A DNA stretch of 64,000 nucleotides from Mobula hypostoma (Eukaryota): the NCBI RefSeq assembly GCF_963921235.1, contig NC_086097.1:63676001-63740000 (forward strand). Reading direction: 5' to 3'. The notes under the pieces were generated by a model. The model saw only the letters and a program-made list of their open reading frames with translations, made no database searches and was not told the origin of the DNA. Shown one piece after another: positions 2,702 to 64,000 of the stretch. The position numbers and the translations under genes are program-made. The first letter of the stretch is position 1, and each line of letters begins with the position of its first letter.

Positions 2702-2835
2702 AGCAACACATAATATCCTAAAAGAATCCAGCAAATATTTGAACAACTGATCCAGGGTTTCAGCATGAAACATCGACAATCTCTTTCATCCCACTGATGC
2801 TACTCAACCTGCTGAGTTCTTCCAATAGAGTGAAT
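2702..2835. mobile_element. Degenerate inverted pair of Penelope 3' tails
   Basis: Minus-oriented tail remnant (AGCAACACA...CAGCA), then a plus-oriented decayed hammerhead tail (CTGATCCAGGGTTTCAGCATGAAACATCGAC...CCTGCTGAGTTCTTCCA). Confidence 0.45.
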
Positions 2836-2979
2836 GATATGACAATAATACAGTACTACAAAGAATGCACATCCCATCATTATCTTGAGCAATAGAACTA
2901 TAATATGAAAACACGCTGATTCAGAGTGAATAACATACCTATGCTTTGAGGTATACAATGCTAGTATCTTTTCATTAAC

Positions 2980-3201
2980 ATAAAAGTTGCTGGTGAACGC
3001 AGCAGGCCGGGCAGTATCTCTAGGAAGCGGTGCAGTCGACGTTTCAGGCCGAGACCTTTCGTCAGGGTCCTGACGAAGGGTCTTGGCCTGAAACGTCGAC
3101 TGCACCTCTTCCTAGAGATGCTGCCTGGCCTGCTGCGTTCACCAGCAACTTTTATGTGTGTTGCTTGAATTTCCAGCATCTGCAGAATTCCTGTTGTTTG
3201 C
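2980..3201. mobile_element. Palindromic Penelope-tail insertion with 14-bp TSD
   Basis: Arms 2978-3066 and 3069-3157 are reverse complements with 5 mismatches; sequence matches the Penelope 3' tail at 30241-30372; TSD ATCTTTTCATTAAC at 2966-2979 and 3202-3215. Confidence 0.9.
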
Positions 3202-4389
3202 ATCTTTTCATTAACTATCACTTTTATTTATATGATTATTCCATGGACTTTGGTACTCATACAAGTTACAGAAATTCTAATTTAATTGATCTGTTCAATT
3301 ATTTGTTTTTTTTTGTTCTCAGTGCATTAAATATATTAAATCAGTTATTGAGTTTCATCTATAGACAGAGCATTCTAGCAATCTAATTTCTTCTATAAAA
3401 TGTAGGCTCCTTTTTCAGGATTGAATTACTGAATGAATGATTGAAGAGGCTGTATTAGAAACATCCTCTCATCAACTATTTTTAGCTGGACTATGAAAAG
3501 TTTGATTCGGGTTGAGGTTGCCTCATTTTAATTAGGGTTCAGATAAAGTTATTGCCATAATAATACAAACAAGATTGGTAAGAATGTGAAATTTCATTTC
3601 ATGTTCTTATTGTTTAGATAAAATGTCAAAATTGTAGTTTAGGAGCTTGTGAAAACGAACACAGCATACAACAAAACATAAACATTGTTTTTGAAATTTC
3701 ATTTCTTCTCTGTATTGAAAGATAATGTAATAGCTTTACTATGTATTACTTCAGATAGATTATTCTATTACAGTGTGATTAATTATTTATAAGGTAATGG
3801 TACTCTTCCAGAGAAACCATCATAAAGATCAGTAAACTGCTATTTTTCTATTTTCCAAACGATTGTTTGGAATATTTGTCAAATTGGTAATTTAGTGAAT
3901 TATCCATTACGCATGAAAAGTAAGGGATAGATTTTATGAACTGGTACTGCAGCTGAGTATCTTTTCGGAATGACAGTACACATTTTGAATTCAGGTGCTT
4001 TGGCCATGCTCTGCATGAGTTATATCCATTAAAATTAATACAGAACAGTCTCGACTAGAATACTAATTCGCAATCCTTAACTCAAGAATAACTTCAAGTA
4101 ACGTGGCTGAGCTCTCAAAATTTAGTGTTTCTCAGCACATCAGTATACATTGTTCCAACTTGCATGCAACATTTAGGAATGCGAGAAGCACAATGAAACT
4201 AGATAGTGCTTATTTTGGAGTGTTATGAAAATCCTTATCGGTCCAGACTTTGAATCACACAAGTTATGCTAGATGCCTCATCAGTATGTGATATCAAGAG
4301 GTATAGCCTCTTATTTGGGGAAAGCTAACATTGCCTCATATGGGATAAACCATACAGATAATATTCCCTTATTATTGTCATACTTTCTC

Positions 4390-8725: not shown

Positions 8726-10517
8726 AGAAACATAGAAACATAGAAAATAGGTGCAGGAGTAGGCCATTCGGCCCTTCGAGCCTGCACCGCCATTTATTAT
8801 GATCATGGCTGATCCTCCAACTCAGAACCCCGCCCCAGCCTTCCCTCCATACCCCCTGACCCCCGTAGCCACAAGTGCCATATCTAACTCCCTCTTAAAT
8901 ATAGCCAATGAACTGGCCTCAACTGTTTCCTGTGGCACAGAATTCCACAGATTCACCACTCTCTGTGTGAAGAAGTTTTTCCTAATCTCGGTCCTAAAAG
9001 GCTTCCCCTCTATCCTCAAACTGTGGCCCCTCGTTCTGGACTTCCCCAACATCGGGAACAATCTTCCTGCATCTAGCCTGTCCAATCCCTTTAGGATCTT
9101 ATACGTTTCAATCAGATCCCCTCTCAATCTTCTAAATTCCAGCGAGTACAAGCCCAGTTCATCAAGTCTTTCTTCATATGAAAGTCCTGCCATCCCAGGA
9201 ATCAATCTGGTGAACCTTCTTTGTACTCCCTCTATGGCAAGGATGTCTTTCCTCAGATTAGGGGACCAAAACTGCACACAATACTCCAGGTGTGGGCTCA
9301 CCAAGGCCTTGTACAACTGCAGTAGTACCTCCCTGCTCCTGTACTCGAATCCTCTCGCTATAAATGCCAGCATACCATTCGCCTTTTTCACCGCCTGCTG
9401 TACCTGCATGCCCACTTTCAATGACTGGTGTATAATGACACCCAGGTCTCGTTGCACCTCCCCTTTTCGTAATCGGCCACCATTCAGATAATAATCTGTT
9501 TTCCTATTTTTGCCACCAAAGTGGATAACTTCACATTTATCCACATTAAATTGCATCTGCCATGAATTTGCCCACTCACCCAACCTATCCAAGTCACCCT
9601 GCATCCTCTTAGCATCCTCCTCACAGCTAACAATGCCACCCAGCTTCGTGTCATCCGCAAACTTGGAGATGCTGCATTTAATTCCCTCATCCAAGTCATT
9701 AATATATATTGTAAACAACTGGGGTCCCAGCACTGAGCCTTGCGGTACCCCACTAGTCACCGCCTGCCATTCTGAAAAGGTCCCGTTTATTCCCACTCTT
9801 TGCTTCCTGTCTGCCAACCAATTCTCCACCCACACCAATACCTTACCCCCAATACCGTGTGCTTTAAGTTTGCACACTAATCTCCTGTGTAGGACCTTGT
9901 CAAAAGCCTTCTGAAAATCCAAATATACCACATCCACTGGTTCTCCCCTATCCACTCTACTAGTTACATCCTCAAAAAATTCTATGAGATTCGTCAGACA
10001 TGATTTTCCTTTCACAAATCTATGCTGACTTTGTCCGATGATTTCACCGCTTTCCAAATGTGCTGTTATCACATCCTTGATAACTGACTCCAGCAGTTTC
10101 TCCACCACCGACGTTAGGCTAACCGGTCTATAATTCCCTGGTTTCTCTCTCCCTCCTTTTTTAAAAAGTGGGGTTACATTAGCCACCCTCCAATCCTCAG
10201 GAACTAGTCCAGAATCTAACGAGTTTTGAAAAATTATCAGTAATGCATCCACTATTTCTTGGGCTACTTCCTTAAGCACTCTAGGATGCAGACCATCTGG
10301 CCCTGGGGATTTATCTGCCTTCAATCCCTTCAATTTACCTAACACCACTTCCCTACTAACATGTATTTCGCTCAGTTCCTCCATCTCACTGGACCCTCTG
10401 TCCGCTACTATTTCTGGAAGATTATTTATGTCCTCCTTAGTGAAGACAGAACCAAAGTAATTATTCAATTGGTCTGCCATGTCCTTGCTCCCCATAATCA
10501 ATTCACCTGTTTCTGTC
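8726..10517 (-). mobile_element. Young 5'-truncated CR1-clade (HER1-like) LINE with open RT frame 8822-10501
   Basis: [46 protein letters not shown]; (TTTCTATG)n-type tail; TSD-like TGCAGT at 8720-8725 and 10518-10523. Confidence 0.95.
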
Positions 10518-11824
10518 TGCAGTGCAAGACATCAATAATTATTACGTCACAATAAAAATAAAATAAATAAATAGTACAAAAGAGAAAAAGTGAGTTAGTG
10601 TTCATTGGTTCATAGATCATTCAGAAATCTGATGGCCGAGAGAAAAAACATAGAAACATAGAAAATAGGTGCAGGAGTAGGCCATTCGGCCCTTTGAGCC
10701 TGCACCGCCATTCAGTATGATCATGGCTGATCATCCAACTCAGAACCTTGTACCTGCCTTCTCTCCACACCCCCGATCCCTTTAGCCACAAGGGCCATAT
10801 CTAACTCCCTCTTAAATATAGCCAATGAACTGGCCTCAACTGTTTCCTGTGGCACAGAATTCCACAGATTCACCACTCTCTGTGTGAAGAAGTTTTTCCT
10901 CATCTCAGTCCTAAAAGGCTTCCCCTTTATCCTTAAACTGTGACCCCTCATTCTGGACTTCCCCAACATCAGGAACAATCTTCCTGCATTTAGCCTGTCC
11001 AATCCCTTTAGGATTTTATACGTTTCAATAAGATCCCCCCTCAATCTTCTAAATTCCAGCGAGTATAAGGAAGGCAACGGGCCCAGATGGCATCCCAGGA
11101 CAGGTTCTCCGGGCCTGTGCAAGCGAGCTAGCTGGAGTGTTTGCTGACATCTTCAGCTACTCCTTGCTTCAGTCTAAGATCCCCTCGTGTTTTAAGAAGG
11201 CAATGATAATCCCAGTGCCGAAGAAGAACAAGGTGGCATGCCTGAATGACTATCGAGCTGTGGCTCTGACATCAGTTGCTATGAAGTGCTTCGAGAGATT
11301 GATTATGGCACACATCAACCACAGCCTACAGGTCAACCTTGACGCTTTGCAATTTGCCTACCGGAGCAACAGGTCAACATCAAATGCCATCTCTCTGGCC
11401 CTACATTCCTCCTTAGAACACCTGGAGAATAAAGACGCATAAGTAAGGCTCCTTTTCATTGACTACAGCTCTGCCTGTAATACCATCATTCCAAATGAAC
11501 TGATTCCTAAGCTCCGGAACCTGGGCCTTAGCACTCAGATCTGCAGCTGGGTCTTCAACTTCCTCACAGACAGGACCCAGGCTGTAAAAATAGGGAACAA
11601 GCTCTCCTCTACAATCACTCTGAGCACCGGTGCCCCACAAGGCTGTGTACTCAGCCCCCTGCTGTACTCATTGTACACCCATGATTGTGTAGCCAAGTTT
11701 CCATCAAACTCAATATATAAGTTTGCTAACAACAGGAATTCTGCAGATGCTGGAAATTCAAGCAACATACATCAAAGTTGCTGGTGAACGCAGCAGGCCA
11801 AGCAGCATCTATAGGAAGAGGCGC

Positions 11825-11860
11825 AGTCGACGTTTCAGGCCGAGACCCTTCGTCAGGACT
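11825..11860 (-). ncRNA. Minimal type I hammerhead ribozyme motif
   Basis: Minus strand reads AGUC-CUGACGA-AGG-GUCUCGG-CCU-GAAA-CGUC-GACU: complete core, stem I AGUC/GACU, stem II AGG/CCU, GUC site. Confidence 0.8.
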
Positions 11861-12153
11861 AACTGAAGGAAGAGTGAGTAAGGGATTTGAAAGCTGGAGG
11901 GGGAGGGGGAGATGCAAAATGATAGGAGAAGACAGGAGGGGGAGGGATAGAGCCGAGAGCTGGACAGGTGATAGGCAAAAGGGGATACGAGAGGATCATG
12001 GGACAGGAGGTCTGGGAAGAAAGACAAGGGGGGGGTGACCCACAGGATGGGCAAGAGGTATATTCAGAGGGACAGAGGGAGAAAAAGGAGAGTGAGAGAA
12101 AGAATGTGTGCATAAAAATGAGTAACAGATGGGGTACGAGGGGGAGGTGGGGC

Positions 12154-14706
12154 CTAGCGGAAGTTAGAGAAGTCAATGTTCATGCCATCAGGTTGGAGGC
12201 TACCCAGATGGAATATAAGGTGTTGTTCCTCCAACCTGAGTGTGGCTTCATCTTTACAGTAGAGGAGGCCGTGGATAGACATGTCAGAATGGGAATGGGA
12301 TGTGGAATTAAAATGTGTGGCCACTGGGAGATCCTGCTTTCTCTGGCGGACGGAGCGTAGATGTTCAGCAAAGCGGTCTCCCAGTCTGCGTCGGGTCTCA
12401 CCAATATATAAAAGGCCACATCGGGAGCACCGGACGCAGTATATCACCCCAGTCGACTCACAGGTGAAGTGATGCCTCACCTGGAAGGACTGTTTGGGGC
12501 CCTGAATGGTGGTAAGGGAGGAAGTGTAAGGGCATGTGTAGCACTTGTTCCGCTTACACGGATACGTGCCAGGAGGGAGATCAGTGGGGAGGGATGGGGG
12601 GGACGAATGGACAAGGGAGTTGTGTAGGGAGCGATCCCTGCGGAATGCAGGGGGGGGGGAGGGAAAGATGTGCTTAGTGGTGGGATCCCGTTGGAGGTGG
12701 CGGAAGTTACGGAGAATAATATGTTGGACCCGGAGGCTGGTGGGGTGGTAGGTGAGGACCAGGGGAACCCTATTCCTAGTGGGGTGGTGGGAGGATGGAG
12801 TGAGAGCAGATGTACGTGAAATGGGGGAGATGCGTTTAAGAGCAGAGTTGATAGTGGAAGAAGGGAAGCCCCTTTCTTTAAAAAATGAAGACATCTCCCT
12901 CGTCCTAGAATGAAAAGCCTCATCCTGAGAGCAGATGCGGCGGAGACGGAGGAATTGCGAGAAGGGGATGGCATTTTTGCAAGAGACAGGGTGAGAAGAG
13001 GAATAGTCCAGATAGCTGTGAGAGTCAGTAGGCTTATAGTAGACATCAGTGGATAAGCTGTCTCCAGAGACAGAGACAGAAAGATCTAGAAAGGGGAGGG
13101 AGGTGTCGGAAATGGACCAGGTAAACTTGAGGGCAGGGTGAAAGTTGGAGGCAAAGTTAATAAAGTCAACGAGTTCTGCATGCGTGTAGGAAGCAGCGCC
13201 AATGCAGTCGTCGATGTAGCGAAGGAAAAGTGGGGGACAGATACCAGAATAGGCACAGACCATAGATTGTTCCACAAACCCAACAAAAAGGCAGGCATAG
13301 CTAGGACCCATACGGGTGCCCATAGCTACACCTTTAGTTTGGAGGAAATGGGAGGAGCAAAAGGAGAAATTATTAAGAGTAAGGACTAATTCCGCTAGAC
13401 GGAGCAGAGTGGTGGTAGAGGGGAACTGATTAGGTCTGGAATCCAAAAAGAAGCGTAGAGCTTTGAGACCTTCCTGATGGGGGATGGAAGTATATAAGGA
13501 CTGGACATCCATGGTGAAAATAAAGCGGTGGGGGCCAGGGAACTTAAAATCATCGAAAAGTTTAAGAGCGTGAGAAGTGTCACGAACATAGGTCGGAAGG
13601 GATTGAACAAGGGGTGATAAAACAGTGTCAAGGTATGCAGAAACGAGTTCGGTGGGGCAGGAGCAAGCTGAGACAATAGGTCGGCCAGGACAGGCAGGTT
13701 TGTGGATCTTGGGTAGGAGGTAGAAACGGGAAGTGTGGGGTGTGGGAACTATAAGGTTGGTAACAGTGGATGGGAGATCCCCTGAGTGGATAAAGTCGGT
13801 GATAGTGTGGGAGACAATGGCCTGGTGCTCCTTAGTGGGGTCACGATCGAGGGGTAAATAAGAGGAGGTATCCGCGAGTTGTCGCTGTGCCTCGGCAAGG
13901 TAGAGGTCAGTACGCCAGACTACAACAGCACCCCCCTTATCAGCGGGTTTAATAATAAGGTTAGGATTAGTGCGGAGGGAGTGGAGAGCGGAGCGTTCCG
14001 AAGGAGTGAGGTTGGAATGGGGACAAGGTGCGGTGAAGTCGAGACGGTTGATGTCCCGTCGGCAGTTGGCAATAAAGAGATCCAGGGCAGGCAGAAGACC
14101 AGAGCGGGGTGTCCATGAAGAAGAGGAGGGTTGAAGTTGGGAGAAGGGGTCATCGGTGGGGATGGAAGAGTCCTTGCCGAAGAAGTGGGCTCGGAGACGG
14201 AGACGGCGGAAGAAAAGTTCCGCATCATGGCGAACACGGAACTCACTGAGGTGTGGGCGAAGGGGGACAAAGGTGAGGCCCTTACTGAGAACAGAGCGTT
14301 CTGCCTCAGACAGTTGAAGGTCGGAGGGGATGGTAAAGACCCGGCACGGATGAGAGCTGGGATCAGAGGGGGGAGGGGGGAGGCTGCGGGTGTCAATGGA
14401 GAGGGGAGGGTTGGAGTGAGAGGAAGATGGAGCCTCTGAGGGCCCAGGAGCTGACGGTAGGATCTGAGGGAGACGGGATTGCAGAGTATTGGTGGGGGAA
14501 GGGGAGACGGGAGTCACAACAGCAGCACATAAAGACCCGGCCTGGAGTTCAAGGCTGGAATCTTGAGAGCTGGGATCAGAGGGGGGAGGGGGGAGGCTGC
14601 GGGTGTCAGTGGAGAGGGGAGGGTTGGGGTGAGAGGAAGATGGAGCCTCTGAGGGCCCAGGAGTTGACGGTGGGATCTGAGGAAAACGGGGCTGCGGAGT
14701 GGTGAT
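12154..14706 (-). CDS. Penelope-like RT-GIY-YIG polyprotein, uninterrupted but N-terminally truncated
   Basis: IIKPADKGGAVVV, FYLLPKIHK, GRPIVS, MDVQSLYTSIP, GVAMGTRMGPSYA, RYIDD, Cys linker [28 protein letters not shown]...RFAEH. ORF-track residues from 14707-14883 are antisense Rex1 sequence. Confidence 0.9.
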   Translation of the reverse strand: MTTPQPRFPQIPPSTPGPSEAPSSSHPNPPLSTDTRSLPPPPSDPSSQDSSLELQAGSLCAAVVTPVSPSPTNTLQSRLPQILPSAPGPSEAPSSSHSNPPLSIDTRSLPPPPSDPSSHPCRVFTIPSDLQLSEAERSVLSKGLTFVPLRPHLSEFRVRHDAELFFRRLRLRAHFFGKDSSIPTDDPFSQLQPSSSSWTPRSGLLPALDLFIANCRRDINRLDFTAPCPHSNLTPSERSALHSLRTNPNLIIKPADKGGAVVVWRTDLYLAEAQRQLADTSSYLPLDRDPTKEHQAIVSHTITDFIHSGDLPSTVTNLIVPTPHTSRFYLLPKIHKPACPGRPIVSACSCPTELVSAYLDTVLSPLVQSLPTYVRDTSHALKLFDDFKFPGPHRFIFTMDVQSLYTSIPHQEGLKALRFFLDSRPNQFPSTTTLLRLAELVLTLNNFSFCSSHFLQTKGVAMGTRMGPSYACLFVGFVEQSMVCAYSGICPPLFLRYIDDCIGAASYTHAELVDFINFASNFHPALKFTWSISDTSLPFLDLSVSVSGDSLSTDVYYKPTDSHSYLDYSSSHPVSCKNAIPFSQFLRLRRICSQDEAFHSRTREMSSFFKERGFPSSTINSALKRISPISRTSALTPSSHHPTRNRVPLVLTYHPTSLRVQHIILRNFRHLQRDPTTKHIFPSPPPAFRRDRSLHNSLVHSSPPSLPTDLPPGTYPCKRNKCYTCPYTSSLTTIQGPKQSFQVRHHFTCESTGVIYCVRCSRCGLLYIGETRRRLGDRFAEHLRSVRQRKQDLPVATHFNSTSHSHSDMSIHGLLYCKDEATLRLEEQHLIFHLGSLQPDGMNIDFSNFR
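14352..14704 (-). repeat. 213-bp-period duplication encoding Pro/Ser-rich repeats in the Penelope N-terminus
   Basis: GAGAGCTGGGATCAGAGGGGGG starts at 14352 and again at 14565; the peptide PGPSEAPSSSHxNPPLSxDTRSLPPPPSDPSS occurs twice. Confidence 0.85.
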
Positions 14707-17700
14707 GTTTGCTGATGACGCAACAATTGTAGGCCTTATCTCGGGTAATGATAAGTTTGAGTACAGAGAGGAAATTAAGAACCTGGTGGCATGGTGTGAA
14801 GACAATAACCTATCCCTCAATGTCAGCAAGGCAAAGGAATTGGTTGTTGACCTCAGAGGGAGTAGCGGACCGCACGACCCCATTTACATCAGCGGTGCAC
14901 AAGTGGAACAGGTCAAAAGCTTTAAGTTCCTCGGGGTCAATATCACAAATGACCTAATTTGGTCCAAACAAGCAGGGTTCACTGCCAAGAAGGCCCACCA
15001 GCGCCTTTACTTCCTGAGAAAACTAAAGAAATTTGGACTGTCCCCTAAAACCCTCACTAATTTTTATAGATGCACTGTAGAAAGCATTCTACTAGGGTGC
15101 ATCACAACCTGGTATGGAAGTTGTCCTGTCCAAGACCGAAAGAAGCTGCAGAAGATCGTGAACACGGCGCAGCACATCACACAAACCAATCTTCCGTCCG
15201 TGGACTCACTTTACACCGCACGCTGTTGGAGCAGTGCTGCCAGGAAAATCAAGGACACGACCCACCCAGCCAACACACTTCTCGTCCCTCTTCCCTCCGG
15301 GAGAAGGCTCAGGAGCTTGAAGACTCATACGGCCAGATTTGGGAACAGCTTCTTTCCAACTGTGATAAGACTGCTGAACGGACCCTGACCCGGATCTGGG
15401 CCATTCCGTCCAAATATCCAGACCTGCCTCTCGGTTTTTTTGCGCGACCTTACTTTCCATTTTTCTATTTTCTATTTATGATTTATAATTTAAATTTTTA
15501 ATACTTACTAATTTTTACTATTTTTAATATTTAATATTTGTAATCAAGGGAGTGGGAAGCGCAGAAACAAATATCGCTGTGATGATTGTACATCCTAGTA
15601 CCAATTGTTTGGCGACAATAAAGTATAAAGTATAAAGTAAAGTATAAGCCTAGTCGATTCAGTATTTCTTCATATGAAAGCCCTGCCATCCCAGGAATCA
15701 ATCTGGTGAACCTTCTTTGTACTCCCTCTATGGCAAGAATGTCTTTCCTCAGATTAGGGACCAAAATTGCACACAATACTCCAGGTGTGGTCTCACCAAG
15801 GCCTTGTACAACTGCAGTAGTACCTCCCTGCTCCTGTACTCGAATCCTCTTGCTATAAATGCCAATATACCATTCGCATTTTTCACCGCCTGCTGTACCT
15901 GCATGCCCACTTTCAATGACTGGTGTACAATGACACCCAGGTCTCGTTGCACCTCCCCTTTTCCTAATCGGCCACCATTCAGATAATAATCTGTTTTCCT
16001 GTTCTTGCCACCAAAGTGGATAACCTCACATTTATCCACATTAAATTGCATCTGCCATGAATTTGCCCACTCACCTAACCTATCCAAGTCACCCTGCATC
16101 CTCTTAGCATCCTCCTCACAGTTAACACTGCCGCCCAGCTTCGTGTCATCCGCAGACTTGGAGATACTGCATTTAATTCCCTCGACTAAATCACTAATAT
16201 ATATTGTAAACAACTGGGGTCCCAGCACTGAGCCTTGCGGTACTCCACTAAGTCACTGCCTGCCATTCTGAAAAGGTCCCGTTTATTCCCACTCTTTGCT
16301 TCCTGTCTGCCAACCAATTTTCTATCCACATCAATACCATACCCCTAATACCGTGTGCTTTAAGTTTGCACACTAATCTCCTGTGTGGGACCTTGTCAAA
16401 AGCCTTTTGAAAATCCAAATATACCACATCCACTGGTTCTCCCCTATCCACTCTACTAGTTACATCCTCAAAAAATTCTATAAGATTCGTTAGACATGAT
16501 TTTCCTTTCAACAATCCATGTCGACTTTGTCCAATGATTTTACCACTTTCCAAATGTGCTGTTATCACATCTTTGTTAACTGACTCTAGCATTTTCCCCA
16601 CCACTGATGTCAGGCTAACCGGTCTATAATTCCCCGATTTCTCTCTCCCTCCTTTTTTAAAAAGCGGGGTTACATTAGCCACCATCCAATCCTCAGGAAC
16701 TAATCCAGAATCTAAAGAGTTTTGAAAAATTATCACTAATGCATCCACTATTTCTTGCGCTACTTCCTTAAGCACTCTGGGATGCAGACCATCTGGCCCT
16801 AGGGATTTATCTGCCTTTAATCCCTTCAATTTATCTAACACCACTTCCCTACTAACATGTATTTCCCTCAGTTCCTCCATCTCACTAGACCCTCTGTCCC
16901 TTACTATTTCCGGAAGATTAGTTATGTCCTCCTTAGTGAAGACAGAACCAAAGTAATTATTCAACTGGTCTGCCATGTCCTTGTTCCCCATGATCAATTC
17001 ACCTGTTTCTGACTGTAAGGGACCTACATTTGTCTTAACCAATCTTTTTCTTTTCACATATCTATAACAGCTTTTACAGTCAGTTTTTATGTTCCCTGCC
17101 AGCTTTCTCTCATAATCTTTTTTCTTTTTCCTAATTAAGTCCTTTTTCCTCCTCTGCTGGACTCTGAATTTCTCCCAGTCCTCAGGTGTGCCGCTTTTTC
17201 TGGCTAATTTGTATGTTTCTTCTTAGGAATTGTCAGCCACAGGTGCACTACCTTCCCTGATTTATTCTTTTGCCAAACTGGGATGAACAATTGTTGTAGT
17301 TCATCCATGCGATCTTTAAATACTTGCCATTGCATATCCACCATCAACCCTTTAAGTATCATTTGCCAGTCTATCTTAGCTAATTCACATCTGATACCTT
17401 CAAAGTTACCCTTCTTTAAGTTCAGTACCTTTGTTTCTGAATTAACTATGACACTCTCCATCTTAATGAAGAATTGCACCATATTATGCAAGACAAGATT
17501 GCTAACTAACCGGTCCTCATTGCTCAATACCCAGTCTAGAATGGCCTGCTCTCTAGTTGGTTAGTTGGGCCTAAAACATTGTGTGTGCATCTTTAGGCAC
17601 TTTTGCCTGTCCCTGATGGTAGTAGTTACAATAGGGCATGTCCTGAATTATGGGGGTCCTTGATGATGAGTTCCACCTTCTTAAGTCACCACCTCTGGAA

Positions 17701-21290: not shown

Positions 21291-23014
21291 GAATACTAAT
21301 AATATCTGTATTTAATCCATAAATATCTGACACATGTTCGCATCCACTCTAATAAAGTTACTGGTGATTCTAGAAATGCATACTCGTGCATGAAATTAGA
21401 AAGATCGCATTCAATGTGCCAAAAATGGTTCTTTGCATTCAATTTTGTAGCTCAAGAATCCTCACTTTCTTGAAACAGAAATTGATTGAGAAAAGGGGTC
21501 TTGGAATTAATGCAAAATTAGCCAAAGACTGGTGAACAATATAGAAGATTATATATATAGGATGAATACAGATTGTATTAAAGTTGTATATGTAAGGTAT
21601 TTACTGTTATTTTTCTTAGAAACTTGTGGAAAAAGTTAATGGGTTGTGTAGCAAATGCTTTCATTCTGAGAGCTGAGCTTGCATTAGATCATAATTCATG
21701 AAAGACAGTTAAAATACCAAAATATAATTGTTCTTGGTCTTGGATCTGTTTTACTGCTGATGAGATTCAAAATTTTCCCCACATTTCCTCCTTGAGTTTT
21801 TATTCTTTCTTTGCATCCCAGGACAGCGTCAGATCATGGCTGGTCTTTAATTATGACACTTTAGACATCACTAGCATGATGGACTTTTTTACCTGTCATT
21901 TCCATAGGTTTATAATGTTCTCAAAATATTTTAATGAGTGCTTGAATACCACCATTGGAATAATGATGCCATTACAGGCTCTTTTCTTCTAAGCTGTCTC
22001 TGAAGGATGAATTGCTTCTACTGCCACAAGGGAAGCAGGTGGTGCTCCATAGTTCTGTGGGTGATGATGTTCTAATTTATCAATGAGGCTTTGGGAAAAT
22101 CCTACAAACATTTTCTCTAAAATTCAGGAATTTCATTGCTATGAAGGAGCTTCGAGTACCTCGTATCAGGCATATGGATGATGAGGCCCTGCTGAATGTG
22201 ATTAGATAGAGTTGAGATAGAGAGATAGAGATAAAGTGAGAGAGGGAAGATGAAAGTAAGAATTTTAAAGCAGCATAATGCAGAACTGTATGAAAAGCTG
22301 ACATGTCAGGCTACTCTGGTAGAAAAACTGAGCCAAAATTACAGTTGAATAACCTAAAGTAGAAAAGGAGCTCTGGAGATGTAGCAAGTCAAGCAGAGAG
22401 GATTAAAGCACTGGGATTTTCAAAAATGACTAAAATATAAAGCAGTTTCAACTTCTATTCAGTTATGTAATTTTATAATTAAGCATAGTTTCCAGTGAGT
22501 GGAAAATGATAAATCTCATCCAAAAAATGTTGTACACTACTGGTTTGGTTGCTTTATTATTGATAGCTATATTAGTGGACAGCAACATAGAAGAACACTA
22601 CATTGATCATATAGACATGTACCCAAAATATCTGCGATGTTGCTGCTTGATACAATAGCAAGGTAGTAACTAACTGAGGTAATAGAAAATAGGGAATTCA
22701 AGGAAGAACATAATATTGGTATGCAGTGAACACAATGGATGTTTGATACATTATTGTTCTAGCCACTGCTGTTAGTGAAGTACCTTTGATATTTCTTTAG
22801 ATTCATGCCTGTTATTTGTTCGTGAACAGCAACACATAAGAAACTGCAGACACTACATCCTCTAGAATTGAACTTACTGAGGCTGATCAGCTTGTCTCCC
22901 ACACAAGAAAATAGCAGTAGAAGCAGTACCACAAGCTTACCCCTCCATTCCATATGACCATAGCTGATCTGTGCTGGCCTTAACTCCTCTTAAGTGCCGT
23001 AACTATCAACTTAA

Positions 23015-25160
23015 AGGATTGACAGTGGATATGCAATGGCAGGCATTTAAAGGTTGCATGGATGAACTACAACAATTGTTCATCCCAGTTTGGCAAAAGA
23101 ATAAATCAAGGAAGGTAGTGCACCCGTGGCTGACAAGAGAAATTAGGGATAGTATCAATTCCAAAGAAGAAGCATACAAATTAGCCAGAGAAAGTGGCTC
23201 ACCTGAGGACTGGGAGAAATTCAGAGTTCAGCAGAGGAGGACAAAGGGCTTAATTAGGAAGGGGAAAAAAGATTATGACAGAAAACTGGCAGGGAACATA
23301 AAAACTGACTGTAAAAGCTTTTATAGATACGTAAAAAGGAAAAGACTAGTAAAGACAAATGTAGGTCCCCTACAGACAGAAACAGGTGAATTGATTATGG
23401 GGAGCAAGGACATGGCAGACCTATTGAATAATTACTTTGGTTCTGTCTTCACTAAGGAGGACATAAATAATCTTCCAGAAATAGTAGGGGACAGAGAGTC
23501 CAGTGAGGTGGAGGAACTGAGCGAAATACATGTTAGTAGGGAAGTGGTGTTAGATAAATTGAAGGGATTGAAGGCAGATAAATCCCCAGGGCCAGATGGT
23601 CTGCATCCTAGAGTGCTTAAGGAAGTAGCCCAAAAAATAGTGGATACATGAGTGATAATTTTTCAAAACTTGTTAGATTCTGGACTAGTTCCTGAGGATT
23701 GGAGGGTGGCTAATGTAACCCCACTTTTTAAAAAAGGAGGGAGAGAGAAACCGGGGAATTATAGACCGGTTAGCCTAACGTCGGTGGTGGGGAAACTGCT
23801 GGAGTCAGTTATCAAAGATGTGATAACAGCACATTTGGAAAGCGGTGAAATCATCGGACAAAGTCAGCATAGATTTGTGAAAGGAAAATCATGTCTGACG
23901 AATCTCATAGAATTTTTTGAGGATGTAACTAGTAGAGTGGATAGGGGAGAATCAGTGGATGTGGTATATTTGGATTTTCAAAAGGCTTTTGACAAGGTCC
24001 CACACAGGAGATTAGTGTGCAAACTTAAAGCACACGGTATTGGGGGTAAGGTATTGATGTGGATGGAGAATTGGTTAGCAGACAGGAAGCAAAGAGTGGG
24101 AATAGACAGGACCTTTTCAGAATGACAGGCGGTGACTAGTGGGGTACCACAAGGCTCAGTGCTGGGACCCCAGTTGTTTACAATATATATTAATGACTTG
24201 GATGAGGGAATTAAATGCAGCATCTCCAAGTTTGCGGATGACACGAAGCTGGGTGGCAGTGTTAGCTGTGAGGAGGATGCTAAGAGGATGCAGAGTGACT
24301 TGGATAGGTTAGGTGAGTGGGCAAGTTCATGGCAGATGCAATTTAATGTGGATAAATGTGAAGTTATCCACTTTGGTGGCAAAAATAGGAAAACAGATTA
24401 TTATCTGAATGGTGGCTGATTAGGAAAAGGGGAGGTGCAACGAGACCTGGGTGTCATTATACACCAGTCATTGAAAGTGGGCATGCAGGTACAGCAGGCG
24501 GTGAAAAAGGCGAATGGTATGCTGGCATTTATAGCGAGAGGATTCGAGTACAGGAGCAGGGAGGTACTACTGCAGTTGTACAAGGCCTTGGTGAGCCCAC
24601 ACCTGGAGTATTGTGTGCAGTTTTGGTCCCCTAATCTGAGGAAAGACATCCTTGCCATAGAGGGAGTACAAAGAAGGTTCACCAGATTGATTCCTGGGAT
24701 GGCAGGACTTTCATATGAAGAAAGACTGGATGAACTGGGCTTGTGCTCATTGGAATTTAGAAGATTGAGGGGGGATCTGATTGAAACGTATAAGATCCTA
24801 AAGGGATTGGACAGGCTAGATGCAGGAAGATTGTTCCCGATGTTGGGGAAGTCCAGAACGAGGGGTCACAGTTTGAGGATAAAGGGGAAGCCTTTTAGGA
24901 CCGAGATTAGGAAAAACTTCTTCACACAGAGAGTGGTGAATCTGTGGAATTCTCTGCCACAGGAAACAGTTGAGGCCAGTTCATTGGCTATATTTAAGAG
25001 GGAGTTAGATATGGCACTTGTGGCTACGGGATCAGGGGGTATGGAGGGAAGGCTGGGGCGGGGTTCTGAGTTGGATGATCAGCCATGATCATAATAAATG
25101 GCGATGCAGGCTCGAAGGGCCGAATGGCCTACTCCTGCACCTATTTTCTATGTCTATGTT
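23015..25160 (+). mobile_element. CR1-clade LINE, 5'-truncated, with in-frame stops
   Basis: ORFs 22971-23651, 23652-24125, 24132-24419 and 24435-25088 are one frame broken by TGA codons; TSD TAACTATCAACTTAA at 23000-23014 and 25187-25201. Confidence 0.95.
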
Positions 25161-25302: not shown

Positions 25303-27045
25303 TTTCATTTTCTTCTAGAGGGTCATCATTTCACAGCGTTCACTCACCACAAACCCCCCTGTGCCTGCGATGGCCAAAATATCAGACTTTTGGTCTGCAT
25401 GGCAGCAACGCCAACTGGCGTACATATCAGAGTTCACAACTGATATACAACATATCAAGGGGAAAAATAATACCATGGCTGATTGCCTCTCACGGCCAGC
25501 CATTGAGGCCGTACACCTAGGGGTCGACTATGCCGGCATGGCAATCAACCAAGCTACTGACCCAGAAGTCCAGGCTTACCAAACAGCAGTCGTGGGGTTT
25601 GTGGTTTGCTGACATTAAGTTTGGGGAAGCTGGGGCTTCTCTCTTGTGCAATGTCTCAACCGGTTGTCCTTGCCCTCAAACAGGGGGCAGACTGTTTTTG
25701 ACTCCACACATGACCTCTTGCATCTGGGCTGGAATGCCTCATAGAAACTGGTTGCACTGAAGTTTGAGTGGCGCAGCCTTAGAAAGGAAATGTGTATTTT
25801 GGACTGCAGCCTGTGTTGAAGGCCAGTGTGCAAAAATTAATTATCATATCCAAGTGCCAACGGCAGCTTTTGAGGCCCCTGAGTGCCAGTTTGACCATGT
25901 TAATGTGGACCTTGTTGGACCTCTTCCCCCAACCTTTCCTGGTTTCACACAATTCCTTACCATGGGGGACCATACAACCAGGTGGACAGAGGCCTATCAT
26001 CTTGCATCGACGACAATTGCAGACATGGCTTGGGGGTTTATAAGCGCCTGGGTTGCTCAGTTTGACAGACCATGGTCCCCAGTTCATAGCAAACCTCCAG
26101 GAGACGATGGCCCGGAACCTCGGTGTTAGGCTACATCAGAGAATGGCGTGTCATCCGCAGTCCAATGGTCTATTCAAGCAGTTTCACCGCTCATTAAAGG
26201 CTGCTTTGAGGGCTTCCCTGATGAATAAGTTTTGGCATGATCTTCTCCCGTGGATCTTGCTGGGGCTCAGAACAGCTCCAAAAGAGGACCTGCAGTCATC
26301 CATAGCTGAATTGGTATACAGGCAGCTTTTTTTGAGTGCCAGGTGATTTTTTTCCTGATGCCATGACCGCCTGGTCAGCCTCTAAACAGCCTTCCACCCT
26401 CCTCAGTAAATTAAATTCCTTGCATCTATTCCTACCTCCCATCATGACATTCAGCACTTTTGAGTTCCTGTTGACCTACGTTCCACTTTTGTTTTCGTCC
26501 GCCATCATGCACACCAACATCCCCTAAGGCTCCCTTACAATGGCCCATTCTGCAGCTTGGAATGGAGAGAAACTACTTTTATCATAGATAAGCGGGGTAA
26601 ACCTTAATGTGTTTCAGTAGGTCGCCTTAAACTGGCCCACCAATATTTGGAGGATTCCGCTACCATGCCCCTGCCATCACAACATGACCATGAGCGTCTC
26701 CACACACCTCTAGACAAGCCAAAATCACCTTTTGTTCCTCCACCCATGAAACATAGGCCCAAGCTGGGTCTTTCGTCCAAGGTCCAGACAGGCTCACATT
26801 GCCGGTTTTAGCATATTCTGGAGGGGGTGGGGGTGTTGGGTAATATAATTGGTGGAAATATACAGAATTCACGGTCACAGACATTGGGTTGGGGTTTCCC
26901 TTAAGAGGCTGATCTGATGTGATGAGGTAATTACTTAAAGGACTTTGCACCTGCTTTGTGTTGTTTTTGGTGTTCAATATATGATTTCCTATGTTTTTTT
27001 CTTAAACATAAAACGCCTCCGCAGTTTTATTTGTGAAAACCTACA
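25303..27045 (+). mobile_element. Ty3/Gypsy remnant: RNase H end, integrase, PPT and 3' LTR
   Basis: LEGHHFTAFTHHKP, YISEFTTDIQHIKGKNN.MADCLSR, FDHVNVDLVGPLP, TDHGPQF, HPQSNG..KQFHRSLK; purine tract about 26820-26833, then a TG...CA LTR candidate at 26834-27045. Confidence 0.85.
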
Positions 27046-27060
27046 TTCTGACCCCAAGGG

Positions 27061-27186
27061 CAGTCCTGATAAAGGGTCTTGACTGAACCGTCGACTATCC
27101 ATTTCCCTCCCTAGATGCTGCCCGGCCTGTGAAATTCCTCGAGTATTTCACGTGTGCTCCAAAGTTCCAGCATTTGTCGTCTCTCT
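27061..27186 (+). mobile_element. Stand-alone Penelope 3' tail starting at a decayed hammerhead
   Basis: CAGTCCTGATAAAGGGTCTTGACTGAACCGTCGACT...GATGCTGCCCGGCCTG...TTCCAGCATTTG. Confidence 0.6.
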
Positions 27187-27430
27187 CAGAATTAGCTTTA
27201 TTATCACCGCATGTGTCGTGAAATTTGTTAGTTTAGCAGCACAATTCAATGCAATACATAATATAGAAGAAAAAGAAAATATAATAATAAATAAGTAAAT
27301 CAATTATAGTAATTGTGGTCCCTCCGGCAGCATCAGTGGCTGGAGTGTTATCTTGTGAAAGATGTTTCCCTGTAAAGTCTGCGCGCTGTGAATCGGACTG
27401 TGAGTCCTGTGCCACGACCAATTCACTCAC

Positions 27431-28197: not shown

Positions 28198-30372
28198 CTC
28201 TACCTTGCCGAGGCACAGCGACAACTCGCGAATACCTCCTCTTATTTACCCCTCGATCGTGACCCCACTAAGGAGCACCAGGCCATTGTCTCCCACACTA
28301 TCAACGACTTTATCCGCTCAGGGGATCTCCCATCCACTGCTACCAACCTTATAGTTCCCACACCCCGCACTTCCCGTTTCTACCTCCTACCCAAGATCCA
28401 CAAACCTGCCTGTCCTGGCCGACCTATTGTCTCAGCTTGCTCCTGCCCCACCGAACTCGTTTCTGCATACCTCGACACTGTTTTATCACCCCTTGTTCAA
28501 TCCCTTCCGACCTATGTTCGTGACACTTCTCACGCTCTTAAACTTTTCGATGATTTTAAGTTCCCTGGCCCCCACCGCTTTATTTTCACCATGGATGTCC
28601 AGTCCTTATATACTTCCATCCCCCATCAGGAAGGTCTCAAAGCTCTACGCTTCTTTTTGGATTCCAGACCTAATCAGTTCCCCTCTACCACCACTCTGCT
28701 CCGTCTAGCGGAATTAGTCCTTACTCTTAATAATTTCTCCTTTTGCTCCTCCCATTTCCTCCAAACTAAAGGTGTAGCTATGGGCACCCGTATGGGTCCT
28801 AGCTATGCCTGCCTTTTTGTTGGGTTTGTGGAACAATCTATGTTCCGTGCCTATTCTGGTATCTGTCCCCCACTTTTCCTTCGCTATATCGACGACTGCA
28901 TTGGCGCTGCTTCCTGCATGCATGCAGAACTCGTTGACTTTATTAACTTTGCCTCCAACTTTCACCCTGCCCTCAAGTTTACCTGGTCTATTTCCGACAC
29001 CTCCCTCCCCTTTCTAGATCTTTCTGTCTCTGGAGACAGCTTATCCACTGATATCTACTATAAGCCTACTGACTCTCACAGCTATCTGGACTATTCCTCT
29101 TCTCACCCTGTCTCTTGCAAAAACGCCATCCCCTTCTAGCAATTCCTCCGTCTCCGCCGCATCTGCTCTCAGGATGAGGCTCTTCATTCTAGGACGAGGG
29201 AGATGTCTTCATTTTTTAAAGAAAGGGGCTTCCCTTCCTCCACTATCAACTCTGCTCTTAAACGCATCTCCTCCATTTCACGTACATCTGCTCTCACTCC
29301 ATCCTCCCACCACCCCACTAGGAATAGGGTTCCCCTGGTCCTCACCTACCACCCCACCAGCCTCCGGGTCCAACATATTATTCTCCGTAACTTCCGCCAC
29401 CTCCAACGGGATCCCACCACTAAGCACATCTTTCCCTCCCCCCCTCTCTCTGCATTCCGCAGGGATCGCTCCCTACACAACTCCCTTGTCCATTCGTCCC
29501 CCCCATCCCTCCCCACTGATCTCCCTCCTGGCACTTATCCGTGTAAACGGAACAAGTGCTACACATGCCCTTACACTTCCTCCCTTACCACCATTCAGGG
29601 CCCCAAACAGTCCTTCCAGGTGAGGCATCACTTCACCTGTGAGTCGACTGGGGTGATATACTGCGTCCGGTGCTCCCGATGTGGCCTTTTATATATTGGT
29701 GAGACCCGACGCAGACTGGGAGACCGCTTTGCTGAACATCTACGCTCTGTCCGCCAGAGAAAGCAGGATCTCCCAGTGGCCACACATTTTAATTCCACAT
29801 CCCATTCCCATTCTGACATGTCTATCCACGGCCTCCTCTACTGTAAAGATGAAGCCACACTCAGGTTGGAGGAACAACACCTTATATTCCGTCTGGGTAG
29901 CCTCCAACCTGATGGCATGAACATTGACTTCTCTAACTTCCGCTAGGCCCCACCTCCCCCTCGTACCCCAGCTGTTACTCATTTTTATGCACACATTCTT
30001 TCTCTCACTCTCCTTTTTCTCCCTCTGTCCCTCTGAATATACCTCTTGCCCATCCTCTGGGTCACCCCCCCCCGTCTTTCTCCCTAGGCCTCCTGTCCCA
30101 CGATCCTCTCGTATCCCCTTTTGCCTATCACCTGTCCAGCTCTCGGCTCTATCCCTCCCCCTCCTGTCTTCTCCTATCATTTTGCATCTCCCCCTCCCCC
30201 TCCAGCTTTCAAATCCCTTACTCACTCTTCCTTCAGTTAGTCCTGACGAAGGGTCTCGGCCTGAAACGTCGACTGCGCCTCTTCCTATAGATGCTGCTTG
30301 GCCTGCTGCGTTCACCAGCAACTTTGATGTATGTTGCTTGAATTTCCAGCATCTGCAGAATTCCTGTTGTTT
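28198..30372 (+). mobile_element. Penelope-like element, same family as 11728-14706, 5'-truncated
   Basis: Near-identical RT/GIY-YIG sequence, with a nonsense TAG at 29137-29139 and a 6-bp deletion; TSD GCCCCTAAATA at 28187-28197 and 30373-30383. Confidence 0.95.
30239..30274 (+). ncRNA. Minimal type I hammerhead ribozyme motif
   Basis: AGUC CUGACGA AGG GUCUCGG CCU GAAA CGUC GACU; predicted cleavage after C30270. Confidence 0.8.
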
Positions 30373-32094
30373 GCCCCTAAATAGTTCAAATCGCATCCTA
30401 ATTCTTTGCAATTTAAATATATCCACAAATAAAATTTCATATACTAGCCTTTAGCTGGAAATAGAACTTTTTCTGCGGTTTTCCAATTATTAAATTTATG
30501 GTGATTCTACTTAGACCATTTGTAATGACCATTAAAGGAAAAAATTGTACAACAGTTAAGCTCCCATGATCTGCTATTATACTTTCTTTTCAAATCTTTT
30601 TATTATTATCCAAAATTAACGAGAGTACATCGAAGTAGGCAACACTTACAATGTCTCAACTCATTAGATACTGATTCCTGCAATTCATTTGAATCTCTGA
30701 GTTTGGGGTCTAATTTTCTGTAACCCTTTTGGTATATTGGGGCTCCACTCTTTGAAGCTCACCTGGGTCCTGTATTCCCCACCCCCCAAACTCTTGAAAC
30801 TCACCTGATTCTCACACTACTGCGAAACTAACAAGGTTCTCTTTCCTGCATTTCCTTTTAACTCACCCTTTATGTCTTAAATGCAGGATTTCAACCCAGG
30901 ACATCAATTATCTAATTGCACCGCAAACCTTGCTTGCCCAACTGAGTTCCAAAAGCAAATTTGGGTTTTTTTTTTGCTCCAGATTCCAGCATCTGCAGTG
31001 TCTCTTGTTCTGGGATCATTGTAAGATTTATTTTACTGCTGTGTGGCATCTTTTTAAAAAAGGTAATTAAAAGTGTTGGAGTATTAATAACAATAATTTT
31101 CAATAGTCTGGAAAATCTAGTCTTGCACCAGCAATATCCTGATCATACCACATTAAGAGCTTTTCTGTGCATAGTAATGTTATTGAAATGTTTCAATGCA
31201 TTTTACACAAATTATTTTACACCAGCCCCGCCCCCGATTTCACCATCTGCAGTGTCTTGTGTCTCTGCTTTTCTACTATGTTAACTTGTGTAGGATAATG
31301 CAGAACTTAAAATACACAACGAGTGATAACGTGGTTAACTATAAAAACAAATTTGGAGTATAGGTAGTACATATTTAACAATGTATCTATCTCACTGCCT
31401 TGTATTCAACACCTCAATTTCAGGACTGACAACAAGATATAACTACTTAAAAAATCTTCAACCTTTTCTCAGTTGTTTGGTGAACAGAGAAGGTGAGAAT
31501 AGCACTTTGGGATCTTTCAATGTCAATATCCGGTTATTGGCACTTGGGTGATGAAGATCTTAAATTTATTATTAAAAACACGCCAGAGTTGTGTTTAAGT
31601 TTTGTGTTTCTGGTCTCTGCAAAATCTTTGGCATTAATTTTTATTATGATCTAATTTGCTCTACAAATTACTGGTATAAACAAAGCTTTGATTGTTTCAC
31701 TGGCACACAGAATACTGGAGTTACACCTGATATGACCTTCTTCTGATCAATCCAGTCTTTCCAAATATCAATTTGTTCTAATTTATATGAAGTACTACAG
31801 AAGCCTTCATTGGACTTTGGTCACAACTCAGTTCTGTATGTGAATAGAAAGCTTTATTCATATATTGATCCTGTCCTTGGCAAAAATATTTATCCCGCTG
31901 TCTAAAAACAATGTAATTTGTTCCAATTAAAGAGTAATGACTAGAAATTGTAAATCGTATTCCAATTTTTTTCATTCAATTAATACAAAAATATACCAAC
32001 ATCAGAAATGTACTGTTGGAAGCACTGAAGATATTTCATGGTTTTGCATGTTTGGAATTTATTATTGTAAACATAAAATGTAAACCTATTCTCA

Positions 32095-33345
32095 TAAGGT
32101 ACGCCCTCCAATCCAGTTGCCCGGATTTGAGTGAGTACCTTATGAGAATATGTTGAGTGAACTTGGCCTTTTCTCCTTGGAGTGACGGAGGATGAAAGGT
32201 GACCTGATTGAAGTGTATAAGATGATGAGAGGCATTGATCATGTGGATAGCCAGAGACTTTGTCCCAAGGCTGAAATGGCTAACACAAGCAGGCATAGTT
32301 TTAAGGTGCTTAGAAATAGGTACTGAGGGGATGTCAAGGGTAAATTTTTCACACAGATGGTGGGTGAGTGGAATGCACTACTGGTGATAGTGGTGGAAGC
32401 AGATACAATAGGGTCTTTTAAGTCTTTTATGCAACTTAGAAAAATAGATGGCTATGCGCTAGGGACATTCTAGACCATCTCTAGAGTAGGTTACATGGTT
32501 GGCACAACATTATGGGCTAAAGGGCCTGTAATGTGCTGTAAATTTCTATGTTCTGTGTAACCGGGCTGAGAAATGGCAGATGGAGTTCAACCCCGATAAG
32601 TGTGAAGTGGTTCATTTTGGAAGGTCAAATTTGAAGGCAGAATATAATATTAATGGTAAGACTCTTGGCAGTGTGGAGGATCAGAGAGATCTTGGGGTCC
32701 ATGACCATAGGACACTCAAAGCTACTGCGCAGGTTGACAGTATTGTTAAGAAGGCATATGGTGTGTCGGCGTTCATCAACTATGGGATTGAGTTCAAGAG
32801 CCATGAGGTAACGTTACAGTCATATAACACCTTTGTTAGATCCCACTTGGAGTACTGCATTCACTTCTGGTCACCTCACTAAAGGAAGGATGTAGATACT
32901 ACAGAAAGAGTACAGAGGAGATTTACAAGGATGTTGTCTGGATTGGAGAGCATGCCTTATGAGAATAGGTTGAGTGAACTTGGCCTTTTCTCATTTGATA
33001 GAGGTATACAAGATGATGGGAGGCATTGATCGTGAGGATAGCCAGAGGCTTTTTCCCAGGGCTGAAATGGCGAACACGAGTGGCATAGTTTTGAGGTGCT
33101 TGGAAGTGGGTACAGAGGGGATGTCAGGGGTAAGTTTTTCACACAGAGAGTGGTGGGTGCATGGAATGCACTGCTGGCGACGAATGCAATAGGTATTTTA
33201 AGAGACTCTTAGATCTCATGGAGCTTAGAAAAATAGAGGGCTATGTGGTAGGGAAATTCTAGGTAGTTTCTAGAGTAGGTTACATGGTTGGCACAACGTT
33301 GTGGGCCGAATGGGCTGTAATGTGCTGGAGATGTCTACATTCTAT
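32095..33345 (+). mobile_element. Two tandem CR1-clade 3' fragments
   Basis: MEFNPDKCEVVHFG...HLEYC ORF at 32580-32882; two similar 3' UTRs ending near 32555 and 33345. Confidence 0.85.
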
Positions 33346-62808: not shown

Positions 62809-64000
62809 CAGTGGCATGCAAAAGTTTGGGCACCCCGGTCAAAATTTCTGTTACTGTGAATAGTTAAGTGAGTAGAAGATGAACTGATGTCCAAAAGTCA
62901 TAAAATTAAAGATGAAACATTCTTTTCAACATTTTAAGCAAGATTAGTGTATTATTTTTGTTTCGTACAATTTTAGGGTGGGGAGAAAAAGGGAAAGGAG
63001 CACCATGCAAAAGTTTGGGCACCCCAAGAGATTTGAGTTCTCCGATAACTTTTACCAAGCTCTCGGACCTTAATTAGCTTGTTAGGGCTATGGCTTGTTC
63101 ACAATCATCGTTAGGAAAGGTCAGGTGATGCAAATTTCAAAGCTTTATAAATACCCTGACTTCTCAAACCTTGTCCCAACAATCAGCAGCCATGGGCTCC
63201 TCTAAGCAGCTGCCTAGCACTCTGAAAATTAAAACAAATGATGCCCACAAAGCAAGAGAAGGCTATAAGAAGATAGCAAAGCGTTTTCAGGTAGCCGTTT
63301 CCTCAGTTCGTACTGTAATTAAATGGCAGTTAACGGGAACGGTGGAGGTCAAGTTGAGGTCTGGAAGACCAAGAAAACTTTCTGAGAGAACTGCTCGTAG
63401 GATTGCTAGAAAGGCAATTTCAGACCCCTGTTTGACTGCAAAAGACCTTCAGGAAGATTTAGCAGACTCTGGAGTGGTGGTGCACTGTTCTACCGTGCAG
63501 TGACACCTGCATAAATATGACCTTCATGGAAAAGTCATCAGAAGAAAACCTTTCCTGCGTTCTCACCACAAAATTTAGCATCAGAAGTTTGCAAAGGAAT
63601 AGCTAAACAAGCCTAATGCATTTTGGAAACAAGTCCTGTGGACTGATGAAGTTAAAATAGAACTTTTTGGCTGCAATGAGCAAAGGTATGTTTGGAGAAA
63701 AAAGGGTGCAGAATTTCATGAAAAGAACACCTCTCCAACTGTTAAGCACGGGGGTGGATCGATCATGCTTTGGGCTTGTGTTGTAGCCAGTGGCACGGGG
63801 GACATTTCACTGGTAGGGGGGAGAATGAATTCAATTAAATACCAGCAGATTCTGGAAGCAAACATCACACCATCTGTAAAAAAAAAGCCGAAGATGAAAA
63901 GAGAATGGCTTCTACAACAGGATAATGATCCTAAACACACCTCAAAATGACACAATGGACTACCTCAAGAGGCACAAGCTGAAGGTTTTGCCATGGCCCT
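62809..64000 (+). mobile_element. Tc1-family transposon of IR/DR type with a pseudogenised transposase; runs off the window
   Basis: Starts CAGTGGCATGCAAAAGTTTGGGCACCCC; 22-bp direct repeat at 62815-62836 and 63004-63025; ATG 63192 [46 protein letters not shown]; in-frame stops such as 63501. Confidence 0.92.

Follow-up and report, generated by a model that had tools for sequence, protein, structure and literature searches.

How does a single insertion come to consist largely of a nearly perfect palindrome, and why should the axis of that palindrome lie at the edge of a hammerhead ribozyme motif? These questions are raised by a short insert in the stretch of DNA analysed here, 64 kb in all and referred to below as the window. 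Two inverted repeat arms, 2978-3066 and 3069-3157, are 89 nt each and 94% complementary, and are separated by the spacer GT at 3067-3068. Analysis of the window for inverted repeats and arm mismatches agreed with the initial annotation on the 89-nt arms, the 2-nt spacer and the five mismatches, and the RNA folding suggested there gave a strong hairpin with a minimum free energy of -189.6 kcal/mol (z=-26.6), which none of 200 shuffles equalled. It seems to us almost certain that the insert is a mini-insertion of a Penelope-like element (PLE). It carries two short, 5'-truncated copies of the parent's hammerhead-bearing 3' module, placed head to head, and it has the features of EN+ PLE insertions: an inverted 5'-truncated neighbour at the 5' end, a tail at one end only, and a target site duplication (TSD) with an empty site.

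The boundaries of the insert document one insertion event. In the 64 kb the 14-mer ATCTTTTCATTAAC has two exact matches, one from 2966 and one from 3202, and the chance of a 14-mer at a given site is about 3e-8. Four of 24 listed sequencing runs were compared as Logan contigs: X1, from the source organism and possibly from the same sample; X5, from a relative whose flanks are 1.1% diverged; and X9 and X10, whose flanks are diverged from the source by 4.6% and 3.6%, respectively. Both of the distant-organism runs have an empty site with one 14-mer copy remaining. In record 10 of X10, window positions 2824-2965 correspond to 173-314 of the record and 3202-3373 to 1-172; in record 24 of X9, 2824-2965 correspond to 652-793 and 3202-3848 to 1-651. 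In these records 2965 is directly joined to 3202 and the 14-mer is single, so that the left copy (2966-2979, plus strand; the single copy at the empty site) and the right copy (3202-3215, plus strand; an exact repeat, also supported by contigs) are a true TSD. At the filled site, contigs of X1 and X5 cross both outer junctions (to 3003, and from 3178/3179). The proposal of one insertion event with a perfect 14-bp TSD is thus confirmed, and the empty orthologous site that was to be looked for exists in X9 and X10. The centre junction, 3066/3067, is spanned by none of the 32 contig pieces listed (there are 162,050 further); its support comes from the assembly and from the insert ends, which have opposite orientations. 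Since the insertion is present in the source and X5, and absent in X9 and X10, it dates between the two splits. Other members of the family have TSDs of 11-15 bp where these are clear (11 bp at copy B, described below, and about 15 bp at 49091-49920); for the copies at 60946 and 27063, a TSD search gave nothing convincing.

What lies between the TSD copies? The arms share 2 nt with the left TSD copy, which leaves 2980-3201 (222 nt) as the insert itself. It begins with an inverted, tail-less copy of the Penelope-like 3' module (2980-3066, minus strand) that covers module positions 3-89. The last two letters of the left TSD copy (AC) are also complementary to the element, a 2-nt microhomology, and the inverted copy reaches module position 91 if these are counted. 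A sense copy of the module (3067-3166, plus strand) follows, and runs to the family's modal tail-less end, as judged by loose ends at 3165/3166. Its first two letters are the junction GT (3067-3068, plus strand); alignment with the copies at 11859 and 30240 finds the same GT in the parent, and there is no unrelated loop. The remainder is a 35-nt tail (3167-3201, plus strand), present on one end only and delimited by the modal ends 3165/3166 and 3200/3201. The right copy extends 44 nt past the palindrome (3158-3201), a diagnostic asymmetry to which the initial annotation gave no emphasis: the right arm carries the tail, and the left one ends before the modal tail-less site, with about 8 nt missing. 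The two modal module 3' ends, 35-36 nt apart, come from the best 24 of 1269 rows among the run contigs, with loose ends at 3165/3166 in 177 contigs of X1 and 192 and 180 of X5, and at 3200/3201 in 175 contigs of X1 and 177 of X5. The stretch between them is the PLE tail. Tails of 30-40 bp, often at one end only, have been described in PLEs (PMC8557442), and the tail is also defined in PMC11167929, where two internal reverse transcription start sites bound it in the Anolis element. The entire 3' module is stop-free in one frame (3066-3200, plus strand; 45 codons), as expected if the module also begins the element's ORF.

The parent is represented in the window by two long copies. Copy A (11725-14700, minus strand) has a reverse transcriptase plus, C-terminally, a GIY-YIG endonuclease with a CX4CxxC linker motif. 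Its end near 14700 is approximate and adjoins other LINE fragments, its 5' end is interrupted by other repeats, and no 5' pLTR is seen within the 64-kb window. The stop-to-stop frame of copy A (12154-14883, minus strand; 909 aa) has Pfam matches to RVT_1 (E=5e-5) and GIY-YIG (E=8e-4), both below curated cut-offs, and DKG, CX4CxxC (CKRNKCYTC) and CC/HH motifs are visible in its translation. A Zn-finger-like CX2-5CxxC linker upstream of GIY-YIG is a Neptune/Nematis feature (PMC8557442), and by its linker motif the parent appears to fit the Neptune (or Nematis) clade. Copy B (28198-30374, plus strand) is 5'-truncated, is 98.1% identical to copy A and has an 11-bp TSD. The right arm is 94.8% identical to the 3' module of copy A (11859-11725, minus strand) and 95.6% identical to copy B over 135 nt; taken together, the palindrome arms are 91-96% identical to young family copies. 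A literature search largely confined to sources outside the subscription journals gave no paper that treats this family in sharks or rays. Young RT-frame LINE copies (92-98% alike), together with a transposase fragment, lie at 8729-10531 (minus), 15641-17357 (minus), 23009-25160 (plus) and 63129-63503 (plus); we take the LINE copies to be CR1-like and the transposase fragment to be Tc1-like. Among window frames of at least 120 aa, no host exon is evident.

Does the palindrome encode a working ribozyme? The descriptor of PMC4209133 places a minimal type-I hammerhead motif at 3066-3101 (plus strand). The right-arm hammerhead has a stem I of 4 bp (one of them G-U), a CUGACGA core at 3070-3076, a stem II of 4 bp and GAAACGUC, with a predicted cut after 3097. 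The parent motif has a stem I of 5 bp, CUGACGA and GAAA boxes, a stem II of 4 bp and a palindromic ACGU that replaces stem III. Both arms and both parent copies share the CUGAnGA, GAAA and UH boxes, an additional nucleotide ahead of stem II and the palindromic 15.2-16.2. The symmetry axis, however, cuts stem I: the plus strand retains four pairs and the minus strand one of the parent's five. The earlier suggestion that either strand reads into a ribozyme core stands as far as the core letters go, since these are intact in the left arm as well, and fails for stem I of the minus strand, which is reduced to the 1 bp adjoining the core. In a read-through transcript the hammerhead core is paired with p of at least 0.99, and imposing the hammerhead stems on the locus costs 56.6 kcal/mol. 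With stem I gone from the minus strand and the plus-strand core enclosed in the hairpin, neither strand is predicted to act as a ribozyme. An Rfam scan of the window at gathering score returned no matches. At E<=10, six miRNA-precursor families match the region; we rejected these matches, which lie far under the cut-offs and reflect hairpin shape only. A 26-nt degenerate motif for the hammerhead region likewise had no matches in metagenome_contigs or in viral_contigs. One might think that ribozyme cleavage had set the axis, and this origin was rejected, because about 30 nt separate the axis from the predicted cut, which lies 3' of it. Both arms retain sequence 5' of that cut, and therefore the template was uncleaved there.

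Other head-to-head arrangements are found nearby. An older-subfamily Penelope-like insertion at 51464-53012 has the same plan, with arms of about 670 nt (51464-52130, minus) and about 890 nt (52125-53012, plus) that overlap by 5-6 nt at 52125-52130. Its tail is on the left arm only, its tail-less arm ends at the modal site, and its degenerate TSD (51452-51463 and 53012-53023) is 10/12 identical. Three decayed mini-insertions probably share this head-to-head plan. Two of them, at 26993-27193 and at about 44617-44721, have the tail on the antisense arm (shuffles as good: 0/100 and 4/100, respectively). The third, at 2702-2826, lies 150 nt upstream of the palindrome and is weak (3/100 shuffles as good); its antisense arm ends at the tail-less site and its sense arm starts at the hammerhead core. 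In this stretch, the 54 nt that the window has from 2769 to 2824 stand against about 860 nt in X10. With the older insertion and the probable decayed minis, as with the contig joints described below, head-to-head joining is routine for the parent family. As a separate observation, a short palindrome at 32083-32154 (32-nt arms, 8-nt spacer) sits at an inverted LINE-fragment junction and is unrelated to the Penelope family.

The run contigs extend this picture. Among 278 joints, the best 15, which are the best supported and no random draw, all link an antisense arm to a sense arm, all are asymmetric, by 6-81 nt, and in all of them one arm reaches within about 19 nt of the hammerhead 5' edge; none of the 15 is in X9 or X10. 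Joint positions are soft, many being flagged 'between: not known' and drawn to the private variant at 3057. Within the 64 kb, the centre junction of the locus itself has one site, with up to 3 mismatches allowed. In X1 and X5, the depth of several head-to-head junction contigs is about 10 times that of single-copy sequence, depth being no copy number; for the 3050>3115 junction the summed depth is 143.9 in X1 and 67.9 in X5, versus about 14 and about 8 in the flanks. It is possible that such joints are recurrent junctions of a lineage-specific burst.

Why does the axis lie where it does? Of 16 nhmmer matches to the 3' module in the window, eight start at module positions 1-11, none starts at 12-100, and eight continue upstream into pyrimidine-rich parental sequence; the model derives from these copies themselves, and among the eight short matches that at 30884 is weak. 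A live lead is that the starting point of short copies is the outer 5' edge of the hammerhead and not the cut site, and we read the position of the axis as a reflection of this preferred edge. Against this reading, the deep junction contigs could be recurrent or propagating junctions. With a common 5' edge for short copies, a near-symmetric meeting of two copies becomes likely by chance, the probability being 0.40 if ends fall in 1-11 versus 0.07 if they fall in 1-70. The outer edge resembles a splice acceptor, pyrimidines and then AG. This resemblance is suggestive only: the edge AG also belongs to stem I, and the whole 296-nt UTR is 67-87% pyrimidine. In D. virilis Penelope, the 3' end of an intron lies at helix I (PMC4209133).

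How were the two copies joined? We prefer a double-priming path, and think it a reasonably probable one. The element's protein would cut both target strands 14 nt apart, and both free 3' ends would prime reverse transcription. On one strand synthesis would start from the tail end, 3201, and on the other close to the second, tail-less start site, about 8 nt short of it, at the 2-nt microhomology. Both cDNAs would run through the uncleaved hammerhead, stop at the shared outer 5' edge and there be joined head to head. The palindrome would then be a by-product of integration, and we claim no function for it. Thus, where the initial annotation offered a double-primed Penelope-tail product, the Penelope tail is supported by the parent element in the window and by the empty site, and the double priming is what we infer. 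In L1 twin priming, both target strands prime reverse transcription, which leads to an inversion inside one TSD; what is inverted there is another part of the single RNA, farther upstream. In the present locus the two arms are copies of one and the same stretch, so that a pair of RNAs, a pair of pLTRs on a single RNA, or re-use would be needed. The Anolis protein, a predicted dimer, cleaves and extends both strands in vitro, and the Anolis element prefers an AT-rich target and uses uncleaved RNA as template (PMC11167929). The spacing of our two modal ends matches the two start sites that bound the Anolis tail, which supports double priming, as does the like plan of the older insertion at 51464-53012, and the asymmetry of the best 15 of 278 joints is as expected for two independently truncated cDNAs.

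Some features of the locus nevertheless sit uneasily with double priming, and they bring forward a different route. In fold-back, a tail-primed cDNA would reach the hammerhead 5' edge, snap back, copy itself and be joined via the 2-nt microhomology to the other target strand; in a variant, antisense RNA would self-prime, with the same family and the same single event. We consider fold-back unlikely, though a serious contender. It directly predicts an axis symmetric within 2 nt, and the near-perfect symmetry, with arms that start at module positions 3 and 1, counts against double priming. The inverted arm ends about 8 nt off the modal tail-less site, at a microhomology, and this too counts for fold-back and against double priming. 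Both arms have the same subfamily variants relative to copies A and B, as fold-back would have it; such common variants fit one template as well as two. The five differences in 89 nt are compatible with arms identical at birth if the insertion goes back almost to the split from the X9 and X10 organisms (P=0.22-0.39 at 3.6-4.6% flank divergence), but the fit is poor (P=0.003 at 1.1%) if it is as young as the split between the source and X5. Junction palindromes have been read as self-priming on an antisense template (PMC3846280). A snap-back, however, would need untemplated letters and a loop of 2-4 nt, as the parent's next letters are unpaired. Neither the best 15 of 278 joints nor the other inverted insertions of the window (51464-53012 and, weakly, 2702-2826 and 26993-27193) have the symmetry that fold-back would give. 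One locus cannot separate the two routes.

Could the palindrome instead be a mobile unit in its own right, or a source of regulatory RNA? The initial annotation raised a MITE-like fold-back element; in such a MITE-like or retrozyme-like non-autonomous family, the palindrome would be the unit transcribed and re-inserted by Penelope protein, which we find improbable. Some head-to-head junction contigs, at about 10 times single-copy flank depth, may indeed recur, and non-autonomous hammerhead-bearing PLE derivatives exist (bioRxiv 10.64898/2026.07.22.740005). But the junction of the locus has one site in the window, even with 3 mismatches allowed, and the other listed junctions differ in breakpoint, which argues against a MITE family, as do the 278 different joints among the contigs. 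The 3050>3115 junction has a 4-nt microhomology, so it could form repeatedly. TSD length varies in the family, within the 11-15 bp noted above. As to the terminal repeats of a MITE, 44 nt of element separate the right arm from the TSD, and as to a transposase, no link to one is seen, what was inserted being the end of an element with RT and GIY-YIG. A tandem non-LTR retrozyme was rejected, the layout being head to head with no head-to-tail tandem unit. Doubtful, though a little less so than the MITE-like family, is that a short or spliced family RNA has a usable 5' end at the hammerhead edge (a start site or an AG|TCC splice-acceptor-like motif being the candidates), that dimeric RT copies it from both nicks, and that some of the resulting palindromes re-template; it is equally doubtful that there is, as this would imply, a hammerhead-centred fold-back non-autonomous class with fixed junctions, of which the deep junction contigs would be members. 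A hairpin-RNA (siRNA) source directed at the young family and maintained by selection, with G-U-preserving substitutions, we judge very improbable. If transcribed, the palindrome would give an 89-bp duplex 91-96% identical to young copies; the insertion is retained in two organisms (X1 and X5), and PLE small RNAs are known in a rotifer (PMC3846280). The insertion is absent, however, from organisms only 3.6-4.6% diverged in the flanks, the locus is without an Rfam match at gathering score, the miRNA matches being shape-only, and the G-U pattern on which selection would have acted does not stand out. Four of the five arm mismatches (3057/3078, 3051/3084, 3028/3107, 3015/3120 and 3009/3126) are G-U on the plus strand. 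Compared with three young window copies, the left arm has four differences of its own and the right arm one, a change at CpG, and the plus-strand G-U cases comprise three C>T changes, one of them at CpG, and a single A>G. For 4/4 transitions as G-U, p=0.125 (two-sided), and four other opposite-orientation repeat pairs of the window, with G-U:A-C of 13:19, 12:12, 10:11 and 12:20, are without a G-U excess. The G-U bias is chance, as had been allowed for at the outset. G-U selection and RNA editing were both rejected, the substitution types having no editing signature; the asymmetry of arm mutations (4 in 89 nt on the left, 1 in 135 nt on the right) is not significant (p=0.08). Least probable of all, and extremely so, is that the palindrome centre is an assembly artefact. 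Although no piece crosses 3066/3067 among the 32 contig pieces listed, the outer junctions are in opposite element orientation in contigs of two organisms, the arms differ at five sites, the unit is flanked by an exact TSD, and there are empty sites.

Returning to double priming as the preferred reading, how does the locus compare with known systems? An inverted 5'-truncated copy adjoining the 5' end is described for EN+ PLEs (PMC8557442, Fig. 2 legend), and inverted pLTRs with a tail, TSDs of 8-10 bp, an empty allele and junction palindromes are described in PMC3846280. The head-to-head form has been called the most frequent PLE arrangement (PMC3846280; PMC8557442), and inverted pLTRs and 3' extensions are listed among the known PLE peculiarities (PMC8969392). 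The locus resembles these EN+ PLE inverted-pLTR insertions in its 5'-truncated inverted neighbour, one-end tail, TSD, junction palindrome and pLTR hammerhead. It differs from the rotifer cases in its TSD, 14 bp as opposed to 8-10 bp (PMC3846280), and from published PLE inversions in that its copies are only 87 and 135 nt, with no ORF between them and with the axis at the hammerhead 5' edge. PAc (Poseidon, Anolis carolinensis; PMC11167929) has in common with the locus a tail bounded by two sites, an AT-rich target and an uncleaved hammerhead template. PAc belongs to the Penelope/Poseidon clade, however, whereas the parent here has the CX2-5CxxC linker of Neptune/Nematis, and the available sections of the PAc work do not show inverted-junction formation.

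The hammerheads and the short non-coding relatives of PLEs offer further comparisons. Metazoan PLEs have dual minimal hammerheads on opposite strands, 100-700 bp apart (PMC4209133). The locus is like these in its core boxes, the extra nucleotide before stem II, the missing stem III and the short stem I, but its cores are 4 nt apart and its left arm is without stem I. The usual G10.1-C11.1 pair of minimal hammerheads (PMC4209133) is replaced here by G-U, the left arm having A-U. The non-LTR retrozymes of animals (bioRxiv 10.64898/2026.07.22.740005) are likewise short, non-coding, hammerhead-bearing and pLTR-related. Retrozymes, however, are monomers or tandem repeats, whereas the locus is a head-to-head pair, 95% identical to the end of an autonomous element.

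What does the locus mean for the Penelope-like family? Taken alone, it adds one copy to a very abundant repeat, and it is an ordinary, new instance of an already published Penelope-like insertion layout, which the initial annotation had not recognised as such. How PLEs form tandem and inverted structures has been called undefined (PMC8557442). Against that background the locus is a clean, dated specimen: its filled and empty sites are usable as a phylogenetic marker, and young, short, TSD-flanked palindromes, in a genome with empty-site relatives, are well suited to a decision between double priming and fold-back. Such a genome is also suited to asking why the short copies begin at the outer edge of the hammerhead.
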